DNA of 64,000 bases. Origin: Eubacteriales bacterium. Lineage in GTDB: Bacteria > Bacillota > Clostridia > Oscillospirales > CAG-382. Positions 16,770 through 53,419 of the stretch are shown here, piece by piece (within the stretch, counting starts at the first letter, position 1; the number at the start of each line of letters is the position of its first letter). The notes beneath the pieces were generated by a model, which saw only the letters and a list, made by a program, of their open reading frames with translations, did not search any database and had not been told where the DNA came from. The stretch covers positions 57,378 through 121,377 of the forward strand of contig JAZKZH010000007.1 of assembly GCA_045612545.1 (NCBI GenBank), written 5' to 3'. Position numbers and translations under genes: made by a program.

Positions 16770-16798
16770 TTGACAGCCTTGCCCTTTTATGGTATACT
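16770..16798 (+). promoter_or_regulatory. sigma-A promoter (TTGACA-17-TATACT, TGg extended -10)
   Basis: TTGACA at 16770-16775 and TATACT at 16793-16798. Confidence 0.55.
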
Positions 16799-16818
16799 CA
16801 AAGCAAGAGGTGATCTGT

Positions 16819-17403
16819 ATGAAAACAGTTTTACGCAAGATCGGGGAGTTCTTTTCCCTTCTTTTGGCCTTGCCCCTGATTTTACTTTTTTTGCTGTTCA
16901 TTTTATGCAAAGCTCCCGTAGAATATATCCGCTACCGCCGTTCCATATACCGTAAGGAAACGGGAGAAAAAGCCCATTGGTGGCCGTATAACGATTACAT
17001 CCGTATCTACGACACGGTAAGGGCCAACGACCTCCCTCTGACATTTCTGAGGAACACAGCGGCTGACATCACCGGACACGGCTATTGGATCACAGGAAAC
17101 GCCGCCATTACCCCGGATTGTGGGCTGGCGTACGACGGAGACAAAGGGGAGTGGACGGCAGAGGAAGAGGACGATGAAGGCAATCCCGTTGACTGCGAGA
17201 TCGTAGCCTGCCATCTGGAAGCCTGCCACGCCCTGCCGGGAGGAGAGCATTGCAATTTTGTGTACCTTTTGGTGGATAAAGCCGATGTTCCCGAAAGCGC
17301 TGTGTTATCCTTTGATACCTACCGTATTGTTCCCTATAGCCCCAAAGATCCCCTGCCCGCCTTGGAGGAGATCTTAAAGGCGGAGAAGATCAGCCGTTCA
17401 TAA
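16819..17403 (+). CDS. hypothetical N-terminally anchored protein, paralog 1
   Basis: The start MKTVLRK is preceded by AGAGGTGA. It has one N-terminal TM helix and a shared YRRS.Y motif. Its last ~43 codons are nearly identical at DNA level to those of the 17983 gene. Confidence 0.7.
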   Translation: MKTVLRKIGEFFSLLLALPLILLFLLFILCKAPVEYIRYRRSIYRKETGEKAHWWPYNDYIRIYDTVRANDLPLTFLRNTAADITGHGYWITGNAAITPDCGLAYDGDKGEWTAEEEDDEGNPVDCEIVACHLEACHALPGGEHCNFVYLLVDKADVPESAVLSFDTYRIVPYSPKDPLPALEEILKAEKISRS

Positions 17404-17918: not shown

Positions 17919-17947
17919 TTGACAGGAACATCCCTCTTTGCTATACT
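17919..17947 (+). promoter_or_regulatory. sigma-A promoter (TTGACA-17-TATACT) for the 5-gene operon
   Basis: TTGACA at 17919-17924 and TATACT at 17942-17947. Confidence 0.55.
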
Positions 17948-17982
17948 GGACACACAACCACCCCGTAAGAAAGGAGACTCCC

Positions 17983-18573
17983 ATGAAAAACGCATTGCGC
18001 TCTGTGCGGGACGTGATCCTGTTGGTTTTGCTCTTGCCCTTGCTCTTGCTGGTTTTCGCCTGTTACCTTCTCACCTTCCCCATCACGTTTTTCCGCTACC
18101 GCCGTTCCCCGTATTACAAGGACACGGGAGAGAAGTGCAAGCTGTGGGGACTTACCGATTACGTCCGCTTGTATAACGTCATCAAGAAAAACGGCCTTCC
18201 CATGACCTACCTGCGGGCAAAGGAAGTCCCTCTCACGGGTTACGGCTATTGGATCTTGGGCAACGCCGCCGTGACCTTCGGCTACGAGCCGGAATACGAC
18301 GAGCAAACGGAAGCCTGGCTGTCCAAACAAGAGGATGAGGAGGGAGAACCCTCTGCACCTCGCCCTTTATGGGAAGCTTATCTGGAGGAGTGCAATTCCC
18401 TCCCCGGGGGAGAAGGGTGCGGCTTTGTGTACCTTTTGGTGGATAAAGCCGATGTTCCCGAAAGCGCTGTGTTATCCTTTGATACCTACCGCATTGTTCC
18501 CTATAGCCCCAAAGATCCCCTGCCCGCCTTGGAGGAGATCTTAAAGGCGGAAAATATCCCCTCGGAGGTATAA
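17983..18573 (+). CDS. hypothetical N-terminally anchored protein, paralog 2
   Basis: The start MKNALRS is preceded by AAAGGAGA. The architecture matches the 16819 gene, and bases 18424-18551 match 17257-17384 at 127 of 128 positions. Confidence 0.7.
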   Translation: MKNALRSVRDVILLVLLLPLLLLVFACYLLTFPITFFRYRRSPYYKDTGEKCKLWGLTDYVRLYNVIKKNGLPMTYLRAKEVPLTGYGYWILGNAAVTFGYEPEYDEQTEAWLSKQEDEEGEPSAPRPLWEAYLEECNSLPGGEGCGFVYLLVDKADVPESAVLSFDTYRIVPYSPKDPLPALEEILKAENIPSEV

Positions 18574-18575
18574 CA

Positions 18576-19196
18576 ATGGCAAAAGACCTTTATAAATACG
18601 ATGACCCGGAAGACGAACGGTTGCTTCTCACCCCGGAGATGATCTTCTCCCACCAAAAGAAGAAGGCAGTAGAAGACCTGCTGATGTCCTTGGGGGCGTT
18701 GGTATTTTTCGTTCTCTTCTGGATCGCCGACATCGTGGCCATCTCCGAAGTCCTTGGCGCAGAGGAAGCCACCTTCTCTCCTTTGCTCGCCATCGCTCCC
18801 ATCCTGGCCGGCGGCTTGTTTACCAGCTGTTTCTGCATCCATCAATGGATCCAAACCGCGTCTTCCGTCTCCTGCGCCTGGGGCAGAAGGTACCGCATGG
18901 ATGTGGACACCCTGGAACGGGTCTCCGAGGGAGAATACGAAAAGCTCCCCTTCTTCTCCTTCAAGCGTTTTTGGGGACGGGGAAGAGGGAACTTGGCATA
19001 CAGAGAACGGCAAACCACCGTCACTGCCTACTACTTTGCAAAGAACGGCAGAGCCATCTCCCGCCATATCACTACCCACGACGGGGATTTTGACGGCGAC
19101 ACCTTCTATTTGATCATCCGCGAGAAGGACGGTGTGATCATCGGGGCTTACAACACCAAGAAATACCGTTTGGAGACGGAAAATGGAACAACGTAA
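18576..19196 (+). CDS. hypothetical membrane protein (2 TM helices plus soluble domain)
   Basis: 206 aa. RBS GGAGG precedes it, and it starts 2 nt after the previous stop codon. Confidence 0.65.
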   Translation: MAKDLYKYDDPEDERLLLTPEMIFSHQKKKAVEDLLMSLGALVFFVLFWIADIVAISEVLGAEEATFSPLLAIAPILAGGLFTSCFCIHQWIQTASSVSCAWGRRYRMDVDTLERVSEGEYEKLPFFSFKRFWGRGRGNLAYRERQTTVTAYYFAKNGRAISRHITTHDGDFDGDTFYLIIREKDGVIIGAYNTKKYRLETENGTT

Positions 19197-20801: not shown

Positions 20802-21905
20802 ATGTTCCGCATCATTTTTGGATTGGTATTCCTTTTGGGGATCGCGGGGATCTTCTATTTAGGCAACCGCCTTTGCAAATATCCCCCTTTTCGGGGCAGA
20901 AAGCTGCCCATTCGGTTGCTTGCCTACCCGGTGCTTCCTTTGCTTTGCTATTTAGCCGTGAAGCTGTTGGGGATCTCCAACTTCAATATCATCGTATTAC
21001 TTCTGCACTTGGTGATCTTTTGGCTGTTTTGCGACCTTGGCTTTTGGTTGGCAGAAAAGATCAGAAAAAAGAAGCCCCGCCGTTACTACGCGGGGGTCAC
21101 CGCCATTCTGTTGACGGTGGTGTATTTGGGGCTTGGATGGTTTTTTGCCCACCACGTGTTCGTCACGGAATATGATCTCACCACGGAAAAAGACACCCCT
21201 CCCCTCACCATCGTGCAGATCACGGACGCCCACATCGGCGTCACCTTGGACGGGGAGTCCTTTGCCCGCGAGATGGAAAAAGTGCAATCCCAACACCCCG
21301 ATGTCGTGGTGATCACCGGAGATTTTGTGGACGATGATTCTTCAAAAGAGGATATGCTCGCCGCCTGCGAGGCCTTGGGGGAGCTAAAAACTCCCTACGG
21401 CGTGTTTTTCGTCTACGGCAACCACGACAAGGGCTACTTCCGCGACGGCACCTTCACGGGGGAAGAGCTGCGGGAGGCTTTGACGGCCAACGGCGTGAAG
21501 ATCTTGGAGGATGAAGCCGTACTGCTGGCCAACTCCACCCAAGGCAACGTGTGCTACCTGGTGGGCAGAAAGGACGCTTCCGTAAGAGACCGCCTCTCTA
21601 TGGAAGAGCTGATGGCGGATCTTGACCCATCCGTCTACACCGTGGTGTTGGATCACCAGCCCACGGATTTTGACGCCGAGGCGCAGGCAAAGGTTGACCT
21701 GGTGCTGTGCGGACATACCCACGGCGGACACCTCTTCCCCACGGGACTTGTGGGCGTGTGGTTCGGGGGCAACGACCTCTGCTACGGCAAAGAGGTGCGG
21801 GAAGGCTCCACCTTTATCGTGTCCTCCGGCATCTCCGGCTGGGCAATGCCCTTTAAGACCGGGTGTATCTCCGAGATCGTGACTGTTCGCGTGGCGGAGG
21901 GATAA
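20802..21905 (+). CDS. membrane-bound metallophosphoesterase (calcineurin-like)
   Basis: N-terminal TM helices are followed by QITDAHIG, ITGDFVDD, GNHD and CGHTHGG phosphoesterase motifs. Confidence 0.85.
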   Translation: MFRIIFGLVFLLGIAGIFYLGNRLCKYPPFRGRKLPIRLLAYPVLPLLCYLAVKLLGISNFNIIVLLLHLVIFWLFCDLGFWLAEKIRKKKPRRYYAGVTAILLTVVYLGLGWFFAHHVFVTEYDLTTEKDTPPLTIVQITDAHIGVTLDGESFAREMEKVQSQHPDVVVITGDFVDDDSSKEDMLAACEALGELKTPYGVFFVYGNHDKGYFRDGTFTGEELREALTANGVKILEDEAVLLANSTQGNVCYLVGRKDASVRDRLSMEELMADLDPSVYTVVLDHQPTDFDAEAQAKVDLVLCGHTHGGHLFPTGLVGVWFGGNDLCYGKEVREGSTFIVSSGISGWAMPFKTGCISEIVTVRVAEG

Positions 21906-22090
21906 AAAAGCGAATGATTTTTACCACCGTTGGCATTTCGACGAGGCAAAAAGCCTCCCCTTAGTATAGGGGAAGAAGGGATTGTCCCACAGGTAAAACT
22001 TGCTTCCCGCTCTTTCACAAAAAGTATCTTTCAGAACGGTCAACCCCCTCAGTCGCGGTGCAAGCACCTTGACAGCTCCCGCCTTCCAGG

Positions 22091-22182
22091 GGGAGCCTTT
22101 CTCCGGCATCTCCGGCTGGGCAATGCCCTTTAAGACCGGCTGTATCTCCGAGATCGCGGTGATTCGCGTAGCGGGAGAATAA
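22091..22182 (+). pseudogene. detached second copy of the metallophosphoesterase 3' end
   Basis: It has 39-nt and 16-nt perfect blocks shared with 21828-21883, followed by a diverged tail and its own TAA. It encodes SGISGWAMPFKTGCISEIAVIRVAGE. Confidence 0.75.
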
Positions 22183-22191
22183 AGATGGAAT

Positions 22192-22363
22192 GGGACGCCG
22201 TGGACGTCGTCCCCTACAAACCCGCACATAGCTTGGTGAACAAAGATATACGCAATAAGATGGGCAAAAAACGATTTCCTACCGTTTTTATTGCGAGAGG
22301 TAATTCCATGTTTTCCCTCCTTCCCGATTCGGGCTCGTAGGGGACGACGTCCTTCGGCGTCCC
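22192..22363. repeat. REP doublet 1 (two GTAG-headed palindromic units, heads facing inward)
   Basis: 22192-22224 reads GGGACGCCGTGGACGTCGTCCCCTACAAACCCG (reverse orientation). 22330-22363 reads CGGGCTCGTAGGGGACGACGTCCTTCGGCGTCCC. Confidence 0.75.
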
Positions 22364-22460
22364 GCTTGCGTTTTGCTGCGAAACGGCTTTACACTATCTT
22401 TGATGCGTGAACTTTGTTTCAGTACCGAGAAACACACCGGCACTCGCTAAGGGGAGTCTT

Positions 22461-22513
22461 TCTCCGGGTGTATCTCCGAGATCGTGGTGATTCGCGTGGC
22501 GGGAGAAAAATAA
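22461..22513 (+). pseudogene. detached third, shorter copy of the metallophosphoesterase 3' end
   Basis: TCTCCGGGTGTATCTCCGAGATCGTGGTGATTCGCGTGGCGGGAGAAAAATAA encodes GCISEIVVIRVAGEK. Confidence 0.7.
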
Positions 22514-22572
22514 ACGCTCATAAATACCACAGCTCCCCTTGCTTAGGGGAGCCTTTGTTTTCTTGCTTTGGC

Positions 22573-22734
22573 GGGGCGCCGTGGGCGTCGCCCCCTACAG
22601 ACCCGAAACAAGATCGCGTTGAAAGATGACCTCCCCCCTCCCGCGCCAACGGCTTTTCACCCAACGCATTGCGTGCGTCTTTGTTTGCGCCGCCCCGGTT
22701 GCGGTTTCGTAGGGGATGACGCCCTCGGCATCCC
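22573..22734. repeat. REP doublet 2
   Basis: 22573-22605 reads GGGGCGCCGTGGGCGTCGCCCCCTACAGACCCG (reverse orientation). 22701-22734 reads GCGGTTTCGTAGGGGATGACGCCCTCGGCATCCC. Confidence 0.75.
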
Positions 22735-22793
22735 GTCGCATCCCCAAAAACAAAAAGGCTAAGCTATCAAAGCTCAGCCTTTTTTCGTTGTGA

Positions 22794-24215
22794 TCAAGAA
22801 GCGTTGCCCCAGTAGAACTCCCACAGGGTCACAATTCCGGTTTCGGAATCATACAGGAAGCAATCGAAGGAACACCGCCACTCCTCCGTGGGCAAGCAGT
22901 TGTATTCTTCTGTATGCCAATTGTACAGCAGGATGTAATCATACCCGCCCTCAAAAGGCAGGATAGCTTTTACCTCCTCCGGCAGATCCGGAAGCCAGTT
23001 TGCTTCCTCCGTCAAGCCTGCCTCAAAGGCTCCTCTCTCATCGGCGGAAATCACCGCAATGCAGACAGCGGTAATTTCGTAGGAGTCGTCCTCCAAAATG
23101 GCCTCCTCATAGAAGGTGGTGGTCATAAAATCCGTTTCCGGCAAGATCACTCCTGCATACTCCGCCAAAGAAAACGTTACCTGAGCATATTCTTCGTCGG
23201 TGTAATCCAGGTCGAATTCTGTATTTGCGATGGAGAACAAAAGCAATCCGCAAAGGATTCCCACCACGATGTTTTTCGTGGCTTTTTTCTTCTTGCTCCG
23301 CAGATATATACCCACCGCAAGGGAAGCAAGGGGCAGGATCATCATCAAGTAATATACCCAATAATAATCAAACAAAAGGAACGCGTCCCCCCCGGCCAAA
23401 AGACCCACGCCCGCCGCCGCAATGACGCCCAAAAAAGGCGATAAGAGGCACAGATAAACCAAGCCGATGGAGATCCACCGCCAAAGTCCTTTGGTGACAG
23501 ACAGCTTATTCTTTGGCAAATTGCTCTTCAAAAGAAGCTCCAGGCGGGAATCCGGCTCTAACGCTCCCTTTTGGAACAGACTTACGGGGAACAGATACAG
23601 CGTGCTTCCGTGATACAGATGGTAGAAGAAGTTATCCACCGACACGGTATTGATCTGATCGTAGGGAATGCAATGAACGATGGGCGTTCCCTCGTCGCCG
23701 TTGGTGGCAAACACCAGCTCGCCGTCATACAAGGAGACTTCCACCGTCTTCCCGGGGAAGCTCTTCATGGCGTAATTGCGTTCCTTGCGGTTGTTCCACC
23801 ACAGAAATACCATGATTCCCGTTGCCGCCGTGCAAAGTCCTGCGTAAAACGCGGCCTCCACCCAAAAGCCGGCAACCGTCACCACCGCAAAAAGAACGAT
23901 CATCGATATAAAAACAGAACTCTGCCCTTTGTACATCTTCTTCAAGAGCTCTTCTTCGTAGGTAAAGGTATGCTTTTCCAACGCCTTCGGTTCTTTTTCC
24001 TCCAAAGCTTGGGGCTCCTCTTCCTTCCCCAAAAGCTCGTCCACGGAGATGCCGAAGATGTCCTTCAACAAAAGCAGGTTATCCACCGTGGGCAGGGTCT
24101 GATCCTTCTCCCAAAGGCTCACCGTCTGGCGGCTCACCAAAAGCCGTTGCCCAAGCTCCTCTTGGGAAAGCCCGTTTTTCTTACGGTGCTCTTGAATACG
24201 TTGACCAACCGTCAT
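22794..24215 (-). CDS. XRE-family HTH regulator fused to a multi-pass membrane / YcxB-like sensor region (paralog 1)
   Basis: The start at MTVGQRIQEHRKKNGLSQEELG is preceded by GGAGG 8 nt upstream. A classic Cro/C1 HTH is followed by TM helices and a YHLYHG..LYLFP..F block shared with the 24491 and 26038 genes. Confidence 0.8.
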   Translation of the reverse strand: MTVGQRIQEHRKKNGLSQEELGQRLLVSRQTVSLWEKDQTLPTVDNLLLLKDIFGISVDELLGKEEEPQALEEKEPKALEKHTFTYEEELLKKMYKGQSSVFISMIVLFAVVTVAGFWVEAAFYAGLCTAATGIMVFLWWNNRKERNYAMKSFPGKTVEVSLYDGELVFATNGDEGTPIVHCIPYDQINTVSVDNFFYHLYHGSTLYLFPVSLFQKGALEPDSRLELLLKSNLPKNKLSVTKGLWRWISIGLVYLCLLSPFLGVIAAAGVGLLAGGDAFLLFDYYWVYYLMMILPLASLAVGIYLRSKKKKATKNIVVGILCGLLLFSIANTEFDLDYTDEEYAQVTFSLAEYAGVILPETDFMTTTFYEEAILEDDSYEITAVCIAVISADERGAFEAGLTEEANWLPDLPEEVKAILPFEGGYDYILLYNWHTEEYNCLPTEEWRCSFDCFLYDSETGIVTLWEFYWGNAS

Positions 24216-24306
24216 GCTATCGCCTCCATTTCTTTGCACTCAGTATACACCAAACCCAAGAAAAAAGCAAGCACCAATGGCTTGCTTTTGTCAAGTTGCG
24301 CTTGCA
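24027..24306. repeat. about 280-bp direct repeat, copy 1 (HTH-coding 5' end plus promoter/terminator region)
   Basis: Near-identical to 25709-25988. There are a few substitutions in the coding part and one short variable patch in the 5' UTR. Confidence 0.85.
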
Positions 24307-24490: not shown

Positions 24491-25897
24491 TTATTCCCCC
24501 TCGTTCGCCGTATATTCGATGGCGTACTCATCCAGAACGCCTATACCCGCTTTATACGCCACCCGCAGGAATTGATACGTTCCGCTCTCTGCGGGAAGCT
24601 TGTTAAACTCCCCTGTGGTTATGTTGTAAATGGAAAGATAATCGAACTCCATGGTCCCCACGGAAATAGGGATCAGCTCGGCAGGAAGCTCCTTCATCCA
24701 AGCGGGATCATCTGCGATACCCAACTCAAAGTCTATACTTTCCTTCGTCTTAAATTGCGCGCGCCGGGTGGAAAAATGGGCAACCCCATCCACAAAGCCG
24801 CCGCCCTCGTAGGTTTGAACGATGGACAACACGGGAGGAAGCTCCACTCCAAGGTTTACGATCTCCTCCTCTGCCGTCTTTTGCAGCTTTTCATGCCACT
24901 CGATGGTGCCGGGCATATATACCCCAAACCGCAAAGCGACGGACAGCACGATCACGCCTACGATCAGGTTGTGCAGCCCCTTTTTGTTCTTGAAAAGCAG
25001 GAAGAGTCCCGCCGCAACACATCCCACGGGGATGGCCATCGCAGGGATCATAGTCCAGATAAGCGCGGCGCGGGGATCCTCTGCCATCAAAATGAAGTCA
25101 CTGGCAGGAATGAGCAAAAAATATTCCAAATACGCCAGCACGCAAAGGCTCAAGGAAATAACCCGGGGGAGCCCCTTCGCTTTTTTCCGCCTGCTTTGCT
25201 CCTCCTGTCTTTTCAACAAGACCTCCAAACGGGACTCGGGGTCGTATTCTCCTTTTTCAAGCAAGGCGTGGGGGATCAGATACTCCTTCCCTTGATGATA
25301 CATCATATAGTAGGTCAGATCTTTATGTACCTTTTCGATCTCGCCATAAGGAACACGGGCTTCCCACTGTATCTTCCCATCCCGCGAAAAGGTTGCCAGC
25401 AGTTCCCCTTCGTAAAGGAGCAGCTCCAAGCTGCCGCCCGGCAAGGAATGCAGATATCTTCTTCTGCGTCTCAAAACAAAAGCAAGATCAACGAACAGCG
25501 CACAGCTCACAAGGAGAACGAAGGAGCCGTAAAGGCGATCCAAGAAGGCGTAGCCGTCCCACAGAATGGAGATCCCCCAAAAAGCAAGAAGCGCACCCAG
25601 AATCACCCGAACCCAAATATACCGGTGAAACAGCTTGGCGAGAGGATCCCGTTCGTAAGGGATCTCCCATTTCTCCAACGGCGGGTTTTCTTCGCCCTTC
25701 TTCTCCACCCCCAAAAGCTCGTCCACGGAGATGCCGAAGATGTCCTTCAACAAAAGCAGGTTATCCACTGTGGGCAGGGTCTGATCCTTCTCCCAAAGGC
25801 TGATGGTCTGGCGGCTCACCAAAAGCCGTTGCCCAAGCTCCTCTTGGGAAAGCCCGTTTTTCTTACGGTGCTCTTGAATACGTTGACCAACCGTCAT
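24491..25897 (-). CDS. XRE-family HTH regulator fused to a multi-pass membrane / YcxB-like sensor region (paralog 2)
   Basis: The first ~70 aa are identical to the 22794 gene except for one V/I change. The downstream regions are diverged. A terminator hairpin at about 24457-24485 follows the stop codon. Confidence 0.8.
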   Translation of the reverse strand: MTVGQRIQEHRKKNGLSQEELGQRLLVSRQTISLWEKDQTLPTVDNLLLLKDIFGISVDELLGVEKKGEENPPLEKWEIPYERDPLAKLFHRYIWVRVILGALLAFWGISILWDGYAFLDRLYGSFVLLVSCALFVDLAFVLRRRRRYLHSLPGGSLELLLYEGELLATFSRDGKIQWEARVPYGEIEKVHKDLTYYMMYHQGKEYLIPHALLEKGEYDPESRLEVLLKRQEEQSRRKKAKGLPRVISLSLCVLAYLEYFLLIPASDFILMAEDPRAALIWTMIPAMAIPVGCVAAGLFLLFKNKKGLHNLIVGVIVLSVALRFGVYMPGTIEWHEKLQKTAEEEIVNLGVELPPVLSIVQTYEGGGFVDGVAHFSTRRAQFKTKESIDFELGIADDPAWMKELPAELIPISVGTMEFDYLSIYNITTGEFNKLPAESGTYQFLRVAYKAGIGVLDEYAIEYTANEGE

Positions 25898-25988
25898 GCT
25901 ATCGCCTCCATTTCTTTGCACTCAGTATACATCATCCCAAAGGAAAAAGCAAGCACCAATGGCTTGCTTTTGTCAAGTTATACTTGCA
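25709..25988. repeat. about 280-bp direct repeat, copy 2
   Basis: See 24027-24306. It includes the hairpin AAGCAAGC ACCAATG GCTTGCTT. Confidence 0.85.
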
Positions 25989-51839: not shown

Positions 51840-51879
51840 TAAGAAAACCGAAGCCTGCTTTAGCGGGCTGAGGGGTATA

Positions 51880-52270
51880 GCACAAGTCTGATGTATCTTT
51901 CCGTAACGAAAGAACTGTTTTGTTAGTAACGGAATGGAAATGCTGTATCGAAAGGGATGGCTATACCCTTTTGACATCGTCGGGGTCGGAGTACCATTCC
52001 TCTAAATAAGTACTGTTCTCCCTGCCTGCCAACCCGCAGGGTTGGTATGCTCAGAGGTGACAACCCAATCCATGCTGTCACCCTGAGCGGAAAAGGCGTG
52101 GTATGCAAAAGCGTCTTGCTCTGCAAAACGAAAAGCCTTTGGAGTCGAAGTTTTGCGGAAGTAGTCGTCGCAACGCGACGAAGGATGGAGCAAAACCAAG
52201 GGATGCCTGCATCCCGCAGGGGTATAAGACGAGTCTGATGTATCTTTCCGTAACGAAAGAACTGTTTTTG
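51880..52270. repeat. pair of ~43-51 nt direct repeats bracketing a 0.3 kb non-coding segment (dispersed repeat family shared with 17.5-17.9 kb)
   Basis: 51880-51922 AGGGGTATAGCACAAGTCTGATGTATCTTTCCGTAACGAAAGAACTGTTTTG matches 52219-52270 AGGGGTATAAGACGAGTCTGATGTATCTTTCCGTAACGAAAGAACTGTTTTTG. The unit GTCACCCTGAG...GTCGAAGTTTTGC at 52077-52156 matches 17518-17560. Confidence 0.8.
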
Positions 52271-52387
52271 AAGCGACCCGGAACCGAAGGCAACGGTTTT
52301 TGGCGCGGCAAGGATGGTTTCGCCGTTGCAAGGCCTTCTCTCAAAACCAAAAGCCGCCACGGTTGTGACGGCTTTTCTTCATGCTAT

Positions 52388-53419
52388 TTACAGCGCGAAA
52401 AAGGTCTTTCCGGAGGGAAGGGTAACGGTTTTGCTGCCCTGCAAGTCGGAAATCACGAAGCCTTCCTCCGCTTCGGGGCGGAGTGTGGGCAGGGGCTTAC
52501 GGCACAGCACCTCCAAAATATCGCAGGCAACAGCGGATGCGGTAGGCAAAGAGCCTGCGCCTTGACCGTAGAATACCGTCTCGCCCACAGCCTGACCGGT
52601 AACGGAAACGGCGTTGAACACGGCACTGACAGCAGAAAGAAGACTTTGAGCAGGCACCAAGTGGGGCGCTACCAAAATACGCACCTTGCCGTCGATCAGC
52701 TCTGCAGAGCCCAACAGCTTGATGGTGTAGCCCAGTTCACGAGCTTCCTGGATATCCCTGTCGGTAACGGAGGTAATGCCCTCCAGGTGGGGAATTGCGG
52801 TGTAAGGAATGTACTTGCCGAAGGCGAGACCTGCCAGAATACAGATCTTACGGGCGGTGTCGTAGCCCTCCACGTCTGCGGTGGGATCCTGCTCTGCATA
52901 TCCCAGCGCCTGGGCTTCCTTCAAGGCCGCCTCCATGGTGCATCCCGTCTCTCCCATGCGGGTGAGGATGTAGTTGGTGGTCCCGTTGAGGATGCCGCTG
53001 ATCTTGACGATCTTATCCGCGTTAAAGCAATCTCGCAAAGGACGGATGATGGGAATACCGCCGCCCACGCTGGCCTCGTAGAGATAAGAAACGCCCTGCG
53101 CGTAAGCGATCTCCTCCAGCTCCTTGCCGTGAGCGTCCACCACCGCCTTATTGGAGGTGACCACGCTCTTGCCCGCAAGCAAGGCCGCCTTGCTGAACTT
53201 ATAGGCGATGTCGACGCCACCCATGGTCTCCACAACCACCTCTACGGCGGGATCTGCAAGGATCATATCCAGATCGGTGGTAACACGATCCTCCAGCGGA
53301 TGACCGGGGAATTTGCGCAGGTCAAGGATGTATTTGATATCTACCTCGGAATTGTGGCGAAGCACCTCGTAAACGCCGCCGCCAACCACGCCGAAGCCAA
53401 GAATTGCAATAGATCTCAT
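52388..53419 (-). CDS. hom: homoserine dehydrogenase
   Basis: NAD-binding motif ILGFGVVGGGV, plus SNKAVVA, EASVGGGIPII and GILNGTTNYILT blocks. The ATG at 53419 follows promoter TTGACA-17-TATAAT on the minus strand. Confidence 0.9.
   Translation of the reverse strand: MRSIAILGFGVVGGGVYEVLRHNSEVDIKYILDLRKFPGHPLEDRVTTDLDMILADPAVEVVVETMGGVDIAYKFSKAALLAGKSVVTSNKAVVDAHGKELEEIAYAQGVSYLYEASVGGGIPIIRPLRDCFNADKIVKISGILNGTTNYILTRMGETGCTMEAALKEAQALGYAEQDPTADVEGYDTARKICILAGLAFGKYIPYTAIPHLEGITSVTDRDIQEARELGYTIKLLGSAELIDGKVRILVAPHLVPAQSLLSAVSAVFNAVSVTGQAVGETVFYGQGAGSLPTASAVACDILEVLCRKPLPTLRPEAEEGFVISDLQGSKTVTLPSGKTFFAL

Follow-up and report, generated by a model that had tools for sequence, protein, structure and literature searches.

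In the stretch of DNA analysed here, a window of 64,000 nucleotides from an Eubacteriales bacterium (GenBank assembly GCA_045612545.1, contig JAZKZH010000007.1, positions 57,378 to 121,377 of the forward strand), the last ~83 nt of a metallophosphoesterase (MPE) gene are present three times, and the gene itself is intact. The three copies, termed DR1, DR2 and DR3, are long direct repeats that bracket two tandem non-autonomous inserts, E1 and E2, in the order gene...DR1-E1-DR2-E2-DR3-terminator. We consider it probable that this arrangement results from an insertion in which a long stretch of the target was duplicated, followed by recombinational spread, stacking and decay. The inserts would be remnants of mobile elements belonging to a poorly described family bounded by two-hairpin modules, and no integrase occurs in any insert. 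Our comparisons directly support the anatomy of the locus, the occurrence of occupied and unoccupied sites, the link to a family of elements encoding DUF559 proteins, the long repeats at unrelated genes and the allelic nature of the repeats. The principal features, by position in the window, are the following.

20802..21905, + strand: MPE gene, the target; open reading frame (ORF) of 367 aa (Pfam PF00149, E = 2e-14; orthologues at <=93%)
21824..21906, + strand: DR1, the functional gene end, with the last 26 codons and the stop at 21903-21905
21907..22100, + strand: E1, a non-coding insert of 194 bp resembling a miniature inverted-repeat transposable element (MITE), with an inverted pair of two-hairpin modules; recognized by alignment of its terminal inverted repeats
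21907-21949: leader 'a' of E1, 43 nt
21950-21990: left two-hairpin module of E1, without hairpin 2; block AAAGCCTCCCC...GGGGAAG..AAGGGATTGTCC
22044-22100: right module of E1, complete and inverted; TCAACCCCCTCAGTC-hairpin-ACAGCTCCC...GGGGGAGCCTTT
22101..22183, + strand: DR2, detached copy 1, with its own stop at 22180-22182
22184..22461, + strand: E2, a degraded non-coding insert of 278 bp; a diverged middle segment and a right-module end (~22394-22461) that finishes with GGGGAGTCTTT
22462..22513, + strand: DR3, detached copy 2; CTCCGG joined to the tail across a 33-nt deletion; stop at 22511-22513
22532..22563, + strand: terminator-like hairpin GCTCCCCTTGCTTAGGGGAGC followed by CTTTGTTTTC (a T-run), found in a terminator scan; the same hairpin follows the gene in the related locus L002

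The window contains exactly two copies of a 39-nt core (21824-21862 and 22101-22139) and exactly three of the 16-nt block TGTATCTCCGAGATCG (at 21864, 22141 and 22469); neither count was equalled in any of 100 shuffles. A repeat search of the window returned the pair 21824-21906 / 22101-22183, 83 nt at 88% identity, together with a 47-nt family of three copies at 79-91% identity. These results confirm the three gene-end copies that an earlier note, made from the sequence alone, had reported, although its boundaries require revision. The first detached copy, which the note had placed at 22091-22182 with a length of 92 bp, spans 83 nt from 22101, and positions 22091-22100 (GGGGAGCCTT+T) belong to the end of the hairpin element and not to the gene; the second, placed at 22461-22513, is present with its stop codon, but starts at 22462 with CTCCGG and lacks the next 33 nt, a deletion that falls between CCGG repeats. 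The first inter-copy segment accordingly measures 194 bp and not 185, while the 278 bp given for the second, as well as the hairpins, the doublet of repetitive extragenic palindromic (REP) sequences and the lack of an integrase, hold. Both detached copies share the upstream junction at which GGGGAG[C/T]CTTT is joined to CTCCGG and, as the note had observed, each has its own stop codon; both are also in frame.

In the window, the differences between copies are confined to the last nine codons, where the protein varies most, and the resulting tails (VTVRVAEG, AVIRVAGE and VVIRVAGEK) resemble natural C-terminal variants of orthologues (IAVIRVADQ, IVVIRVAGK and IVTVRVAGEK). A 60-aa ORF at 22000-22182 crosses the E1/DR2 junction and terminates with the copied gene tail. 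Short ORFs of this kind, which span the junction and are called by gene callers (for example, P0146 in locus L082), are artefacts, yet they are handy search handles for occupied sites, and L082 was itself found through a query containing such a spurious ORF.

The MPE protein is a membrane-anchored metallophosphoesterase known from uncultured Clostridia of the rumen and gut; exact look-ups of the protein of the window and of P0157 returned no record. Nearly all of the sequences used for comparison, numbered here as loci with the prefix L, are metagenome assemblies or genomes assembled from metagenomes. A comparison of related strains, which the earlier note had proposed, reveals that the triple arrangement is not universal: L054, L005 and L006 have no insert and a single gene end, in which the stop codon is followed by ~10 nt and then the terminator, and L001 and L002 likewise have one gene end each. 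The identity of the gene end to that of the window is 96-99% in L054 and ~76% in L005 and L006. Positions 22464-22581 of the window, with DR3 and the hairpin after it, align collinearly with the native end of the gene and the sequence beyond it in L002 (7058-7175, 86% identity), and the distal copy therefore stands in the ancestral context. The hairpin at 22532-22563 is probably the resident terminator of the MPE gene; its type matches that of hairpin 1 of the module.

The same right junction of E1 (GGGGGAGCCTTT joined to CTCCGG) is found at the same site in three other lineages, represented by L082, L004 and L106. L082, whose nucleotide identity to the window is ~90%, contains a gene end, a 207-bp element, a second gene end and, at the contig edge, the left end of the element again. 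In L004 (~76% identity), a 1.06-kb insert with a DUF559 gene lies between 84-nt repeats. L106 and the unoccupied L006 are 98.6% identical over 929 nt downstream of the site, and this pair appears to represent a presence/absence polymorphism at the level of species. E1 is 85.5% identical to the element of L082 and 77-89% identical to that of L004, and is equivalent to the L004 insert after removal of what lies between its two 144-nt repeated module pairs. The DR1 tail GAGGGATAAAAA together with the E1 leader is 98% identical to L004, whereas the genes are only ~76% identical; conservation is much higher in the element than in the gene that hosts it. Positions 7100-8930 of L003, behind the MPE gene, are occupied by a 1.8-kb array in which at least five module-bounded units, one with DUF559, are separated by two recurring types of spacer; at the far end of this array is a 13-nt remnant, GTGTGACGGAGAA, that looks like a displaced gene tail.

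The DUF559 gene links these inserts to elements at other genes. The sole real ORF of the L004 insert encodes a 122-aa DUF559 protein (PF04480, E = 1e-24), for which the nearest solved structure is 3HRL, described as an "endonuclease-like protein", and the same protein is encoded in the L003 array. Full-size members of the family carry one gene, for a predicted DUF559 endonuclease (Vsr-like, PD-(D/E)xK), and neither an integrase nor a transposase. More than 7,700 DUF559 homologues were found at E <= 1e-20, mostly on very short contigs and in large clusters, so that these genes seem to behave as repeated elements do. In L084 and L085, from two samples, a DUF559 gene (76% identical) immediately follows the stop codon of an MgtC-family gene, the end of which flanks the element as a perfect 87-nt repeat. 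Another DUF559 element is located behind BipA/TypA in L119, L120 and L121, with flanking repeats of 111-113 nt in two lineages, at 97% and 94% identity. The inverted ends of these elements measure 49 nt in L084 and 57 nt in L082; those of E1 are weaker, the left module having no hairpin 2. Since the same architecture stands behind unrelated genes and it is the ends of those genes that are repeated, the repeat begins as a duplication of the local target and not as a fixed att site. We therefore regard a long, variable duplication of the local target as a recurrent property of the family. A fixed duplication "ruler" of ~85-90 nt, suggested by the repeats of 84, 87 and 90 nt at three genes, was rejected in view of repeats of 19, 48 and 113 nt and of the lack of a long one at a DnaJ locus. 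Module-associated inserts were also seen in L121 (2252-2470, with 48-nt flanking repeats, read by eye) and L191 (2433-3151, with 19-nt flanking repeats), and the phage contig L170 (3347-4013) contains a cassette of a small gene other than DUF559 that ends in the module and has repeats of 57 nt and 34 nt.

The repeats that flank an insert are frequently not identical, and their differences are informative. Between the proximal and distal copies, four differing codons are synonymous and one is non-synonymous in L082, two and none in L004, three and none in L119, and six and none in L121; in L084, both counts are zero. In total, 15 of the 16 differing codons (L082, L004, L119 and L121) are synonymous, unlike what neutral decay of a non-coding copy would leave, which argues that the copies are former functional ends of other alleles. 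They appear to have evolved as coding alleles that were later joined by recombination. The window is itself a mosaic: DR1 combines the resident core, with G at position 40, and a tail contiguous with the imported leader of E1, and DR2, the core of which equals that of DR1 except for C at position 40, has a DR3-like tail (91% identical to DR3). This mosaic is consistent with the entry of E1 plus a repeat through a crossover inside the repeat. Because the differences lie in the tail in the window and in the core in L082, the crossover point would not be fixed.

We infer four steps from these comparisons, and the order of events, the spread by recombination and any role of the nuclease are put forward on the same footing. 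In the first step, an element would insert right behind the stop codon and duplicate an extended piece of the target (19-113 nt among the observed cases), leaving the gene intact and a detached copy of its end beyond the element. In the second, the repeat-flanked unit would spread among related lineages by homologous recombination, with the gene body or the repeat serving as homology; the route would be a double crossover or the Campbell-type integration of an excised circle of element plus repeat, and by such spread the two repeats would become different alleles. In the third, units would be stacked by repeated acquisition or unequal crossing-over. Decay would follow as the fourth: recombination between repeated modules would have removed the DUF559 segment, DR3 would have lost its 33 nt, and the REP doublet would have arrived in E2. 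The earlier note had likewise seen the inter-copy segments as miniature or decayed element remnants stacked at one hotspot, a view that we share.

The alternative that survives best, although we think it unlikely, is that slippage or unequal crossing-over duplicated or triplicated in tandem the segment that starts at CTCCGG and extends as far as the terminator hairpin, which made the repeats without a mobile element, and that divergence and secondary insertions came later. The units are indeed arranged head to tail, each closing with a terminator-like hairpin and CTTT, L082 resembles a tandem array, and tandem duplication plus recombination is listed as an alternative route by Lim et al. (PMC3457768). 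However, the same element and junction recur across lineages with ~76-90% identity between their genes, other relatives are free of the insert, and in L004, L084 and L119 the distal repeat runs directly into the flank of the unoccupied site, with no second element. Moreover, the architecture is tied to DUF559/module elements at three unrelated genes, and the perfect 39-nt core beside a tail at 79% identity represents non-uniform divergence. Plain tandem duplication is possible for the copy-number step only.

The earlier note had favoured site-specific integration, in which the core would be the attP of a mobile element that supplies a replacement gene end and displaces the original. In this explanation, elements encoding an integrase and carrying the 3' end of the MPE gene at attP entered in two integration events and were later stripped of almost all of their content, the integrase included. 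It would account for gene ends in direct repeat whose core is perfect and whose tails have diverged, for the ancestral context of the distal copy, for the stacking of units and for the allelic, mostly synonymous differences between copies in relatives. The logic of a replacement end is in large part retained in our reading, as the distal copy is ancestral, the proximal tail is joined to imported DNA and 15 of 16 differing codons are synonymous; it is the integrase route that we abandon. None of the four occupied MPE loci contains an integrase, and the largest insert, that of L004 with 1.06 kb, encodes DUF559 only. An exact 26-nt part of the core had no match among the 2.9 million viral contigs of IMG/VR, exact-match scans being insensitive. 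Furthermore, the family members at MgtC and BipA repeat the ends of their own genes, which speaks against a fixed att site, and the crossover positions in the mosaics differ (tail in the window, core in L082), unlike the fixed crossover of a recombinase. We consider this explanation highly improbable. That the detached copies are silent cassettes for programmed variation of the C-terminus, with tails swapped by gene conversion or by deletion between repeats, can be dismissed with near certainty, even though there are three in-frame tail variants with their own stops and orthologues differ most from one another in the C-terminal tail, in that the variants are conservative, recombination between direct repeats would delete irreversibly, 33 nt are missing from DR3, no recombinase is nearby, and relatives have one copy or identical tails in both.

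Further candidates were tried and rejected. A diversity-generating retroelement does not fit, as substitutions occur at all bases and there is no reverse-transcriptase ORF at 19-25 kb of the window. For an element of the IS200/IS605 type, hairpins are present, but so are long duplications, and TnpA was seen in no element. The small size and terminal inverted repeats would suit a MITE with a fixed short target duplication; the repeats of 19, 48, 83-87 and 111-113 nt and the nuclease-encoding parent do not. No transposase or integrase was found in or beside the inserts when their immediate neighbourhood was inspected.

Several points weigh against insertion with long target duplication followed by recombinational spread. 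The evidence is entirely comparative, most of it derives from metagenome assemblies, in which repeats can be mis-joined, and neither an excision junction nor a circle nor a transposition event was seen; L106 in particular may be, in its left part, a chimeric join through a repeat. Two exact-match scans of JGI metagenomes, one for the junction of element and gene end and one for the left end of the element, gave no match, such scans being insensitive. That four lineages have an identical right junction is explained equally well by a single ancestral event with subsequent spread through recombination and by repeated site-specific insertion. The commonest DUF559 locus that we examined, a DnaJ-deaminase locus to which P0222, P0243 and P0187 all belong, has no long repeat. 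The assignment of E2 to the family is suggested by an end of 17-29 nt and a weak alignment. Finally, as no DUF559 gene is present in the window, it is possible that neither E1 nor E2 was ever mobile at this locus.

Among known phenomena, insertion with long target duplication, described for restriction-modification genes (Nobusato et al. 2000, Gene 259:99; Furuta et al. 2010, PMC2853133; Lim et al. 2012, PMC3457768), comes closest. The published cases have repeats of 46 to ~420 bp that often overlap gene 3' ends, the mechanism is unknown, and amplification occurs through the repeats (PMC2853133, PMC3457768). The elements described here share with them a short insert without transposase or integrase, overlap with the 3' end of a gene, cargo with a restriction-endonuclease fold, amplification through the repeats, and direct repeats that far exceed the target duplications of transposons and that both align to one copy in insert-free genomes. 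The defining comparison of repeats longer than 30 bp with a single copy in an insert-free relative gives this result for the 83-nt repeat of the window and the 84-nt repeat of L004 when set against L054, L005 and L006, and cargo of the restriction-enzyme type, DUF559, is present in L004, L084 and L119; the inserts of the window are non-coding. Our elements differ in that the cargo is a solitary DUF559 nuclease and not a restriction-modification system, that they have defined ends of inverted two-hairpin modules, MITE-like non-coding derivatives and stacked arrays, that the hosts are gut and rumen Clostridia, and that the two repeats are often different alleles.

Other systems resemble these elements in part. 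In the accretion of staphylococcal cassette chromosome (SCC) elements at rlmH/orfX and of integrative and conjugative elements (ICEs) and cis-mobilizable elements (CIMEs) at fda of Streptococcus thermophilus, Ccr or tyrosine recombinases act on short fixed att cores. There too, stacked inserts are bounded by several direct copies of a gene 3' end, the gene is left intact and some units have no recombinase of their own; unlike those systems, our loci have inserts of 0.2-1 kb, 83-nt repeats and variable crossover points, and no recombinase was found. Like MITEs and the REP and REPIN sequences associated with the RAYT transposase, our elements include small non-coding pairs of inverted hairpin repeats and a larger form with one gene between inverted repeats, but the flanking repeats are 19-113 nt here versus 2-10 nt, and the gene encodes a PD-(D/E)xK nuclease versus a DDE/HUH transposase; no RAYT was seen, although no search was aimed at it. 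Free-standing homing endonuclease genes, of which those for Vsr-like/EDxHD homing endonucleases are one kind, share with our elements a small nuclease gene that immediately follows a conserved host gene and has its orientation, presence/absence polymorphism and seemingly co-transferred flanking host markers, which would yield allelic repeats. However, homing normally proceeds without target duplication, and many of the copies here are non-coding.

It is possible, although we advance this only tentatively, that the DUF559/module elements constitute a previously undescribed class of selfish elements in gut and rumen Clostridia and their phages. Such elements would have DUF559 between inverted modules, give rise to non-coding derivatives and insert behind stop codons with a long, variable duplication, and the gene-end copy would act as a homology arm for integrase-free, gene-sparing re-entry by means of host recombination; the nuclease may home on unoccupied sites. 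Insertion with long target duplication has been an unexplained form of mobility of restriction-enzyme genes since 2000, and it is seen here with structured ends, a single small nuclease gene and abundant non-coding derivatives. The DUF559/module elements may thus serve as a compact system for direct tests of the mechanism. The locus also indicates that the 3' end of a gene can accumulate "fossil" alleles from other lineages.

The two-hairpin module consists of AAAGGCTCCC-loop-GGGAGC, TGTC, the variable hairpin 2 and GACTGAGGGATTGT. Its exact hairpin GGCTCCCTTGTGTAAAGGGAGC was found at 68 IMG/VR loci and is nearly always followed by TGTC, a second hairpin and GACTGAGGGATTGT. The pairing of hairpin 2 is kept despite sequence variation among 56 distinct copies, with compensatory changes at five of the six pairs and 94% of cells paired; the observed covariation score was reached by none of 500 shuffles, and slid controls fell far below it. 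The loops of hairpin 2 are mostly GNA with a C-G closing pair, or GNRA-like. We judge from these patterns that the module is a real conserved structure. In the DUF559 elements, the GAGGGATTGT box lies just 5' of the start codon, at the position that a ribosome-binding site would take. An Rfam search of the locus and six related loci returned no family, only a chance match to a Thr leader (E = 0.13), the hairpin sequence of the module had no match in the literature, and among annotated phage records there were only four matches, which bore no annotation. A motif of ~50 nt (AAAGGCTCCCTTGTGTAAAGGGAGC, TGTC, variable stem, GACTGAGGGATTGT) is common in gut Clostridia and phage contigs (L122-L189, L084, L089, L119 and L121) and typically occurs as a single copy beside gene ends; we flag this conserved two-hairpin motif, absent from Rfam, for its frequency in such contigs.

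Within the window, the module motif GACTGAGGGGGTTG occurs only at E1, and neither modules nor a DUF559 gene were found elsewhere in the 64 kb. E1 also has a middle segment between its left and right modules. The idea that E1 forms a strongly folded single strand was rejected, as the fold of the whole element is unexceptional (z = -1.25) and only the individual module hairpins are supported. E2 shares the 17-nt junction of E1, aligns weakly to the right half of E1 and has a direct-repeat match of 76% identity to the hairpin after DR3. The remaining features of the region are the following.

22192..22363, no strand: REP doublet 1 (REPIN-like), inside E2; inverted arms 22202-22224 / 22330-22352, 91% complementary
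22573..22735, no strand: REP doublet 2, related to doublet 1; direct repeats of 88% and 77%, plus an inverted repeat
22752..22784, no strand: terminator-like hairpin shared with the convergent gene, at which the variable region ends on the right; conserved in L001 and L054
22794-24239, - strand: convergent gene for a helix-turn-helix (HTH) membrane protein

Direct and inverted alignments of the two REP doublets score alike, and further copies of the REP of doublet 1 occur elsewhere in L004 and L005. The doublets are passengers and not the cause of the gene-end repeats.

The window contains other repeats as well. Tandem paralogues of 204 and 211 aa (16789-17403 and 17938-18573), separated by ~530 bp of repeat-rich non-coding DNA, share 179 nt in their 3' parts at 89% identity (17213-17391 / 18380-18558), probably through gene conversion and not through the phenomenon seen at the MPE gene end. 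In the intergenic region 51840-52390, a 51-nt direct repeat of 94% identity (51871-51921 / 52218-52268) is accompanied by other hairpin-rich repeats and belongs to a family different from that of the MPE locus; the repeats at 17213/18380 and at 51871/52218 are unrelated phenomena. In the block 18000-19180, identity to L002, L003 and L004 is 90-97% for the genes at 17938-18573 and 18576-19196 but only 76-82% for their neighbours, which suggests recent exchange or unusually strong conservation. Lastly, the genes at 22794-24239 and 24491-25921 (- strand) encode adjacent paralogous HTH (XRE-type) membrane proteins, of which the N-terminal ~70 residues are near-identical and the rest is diverged.

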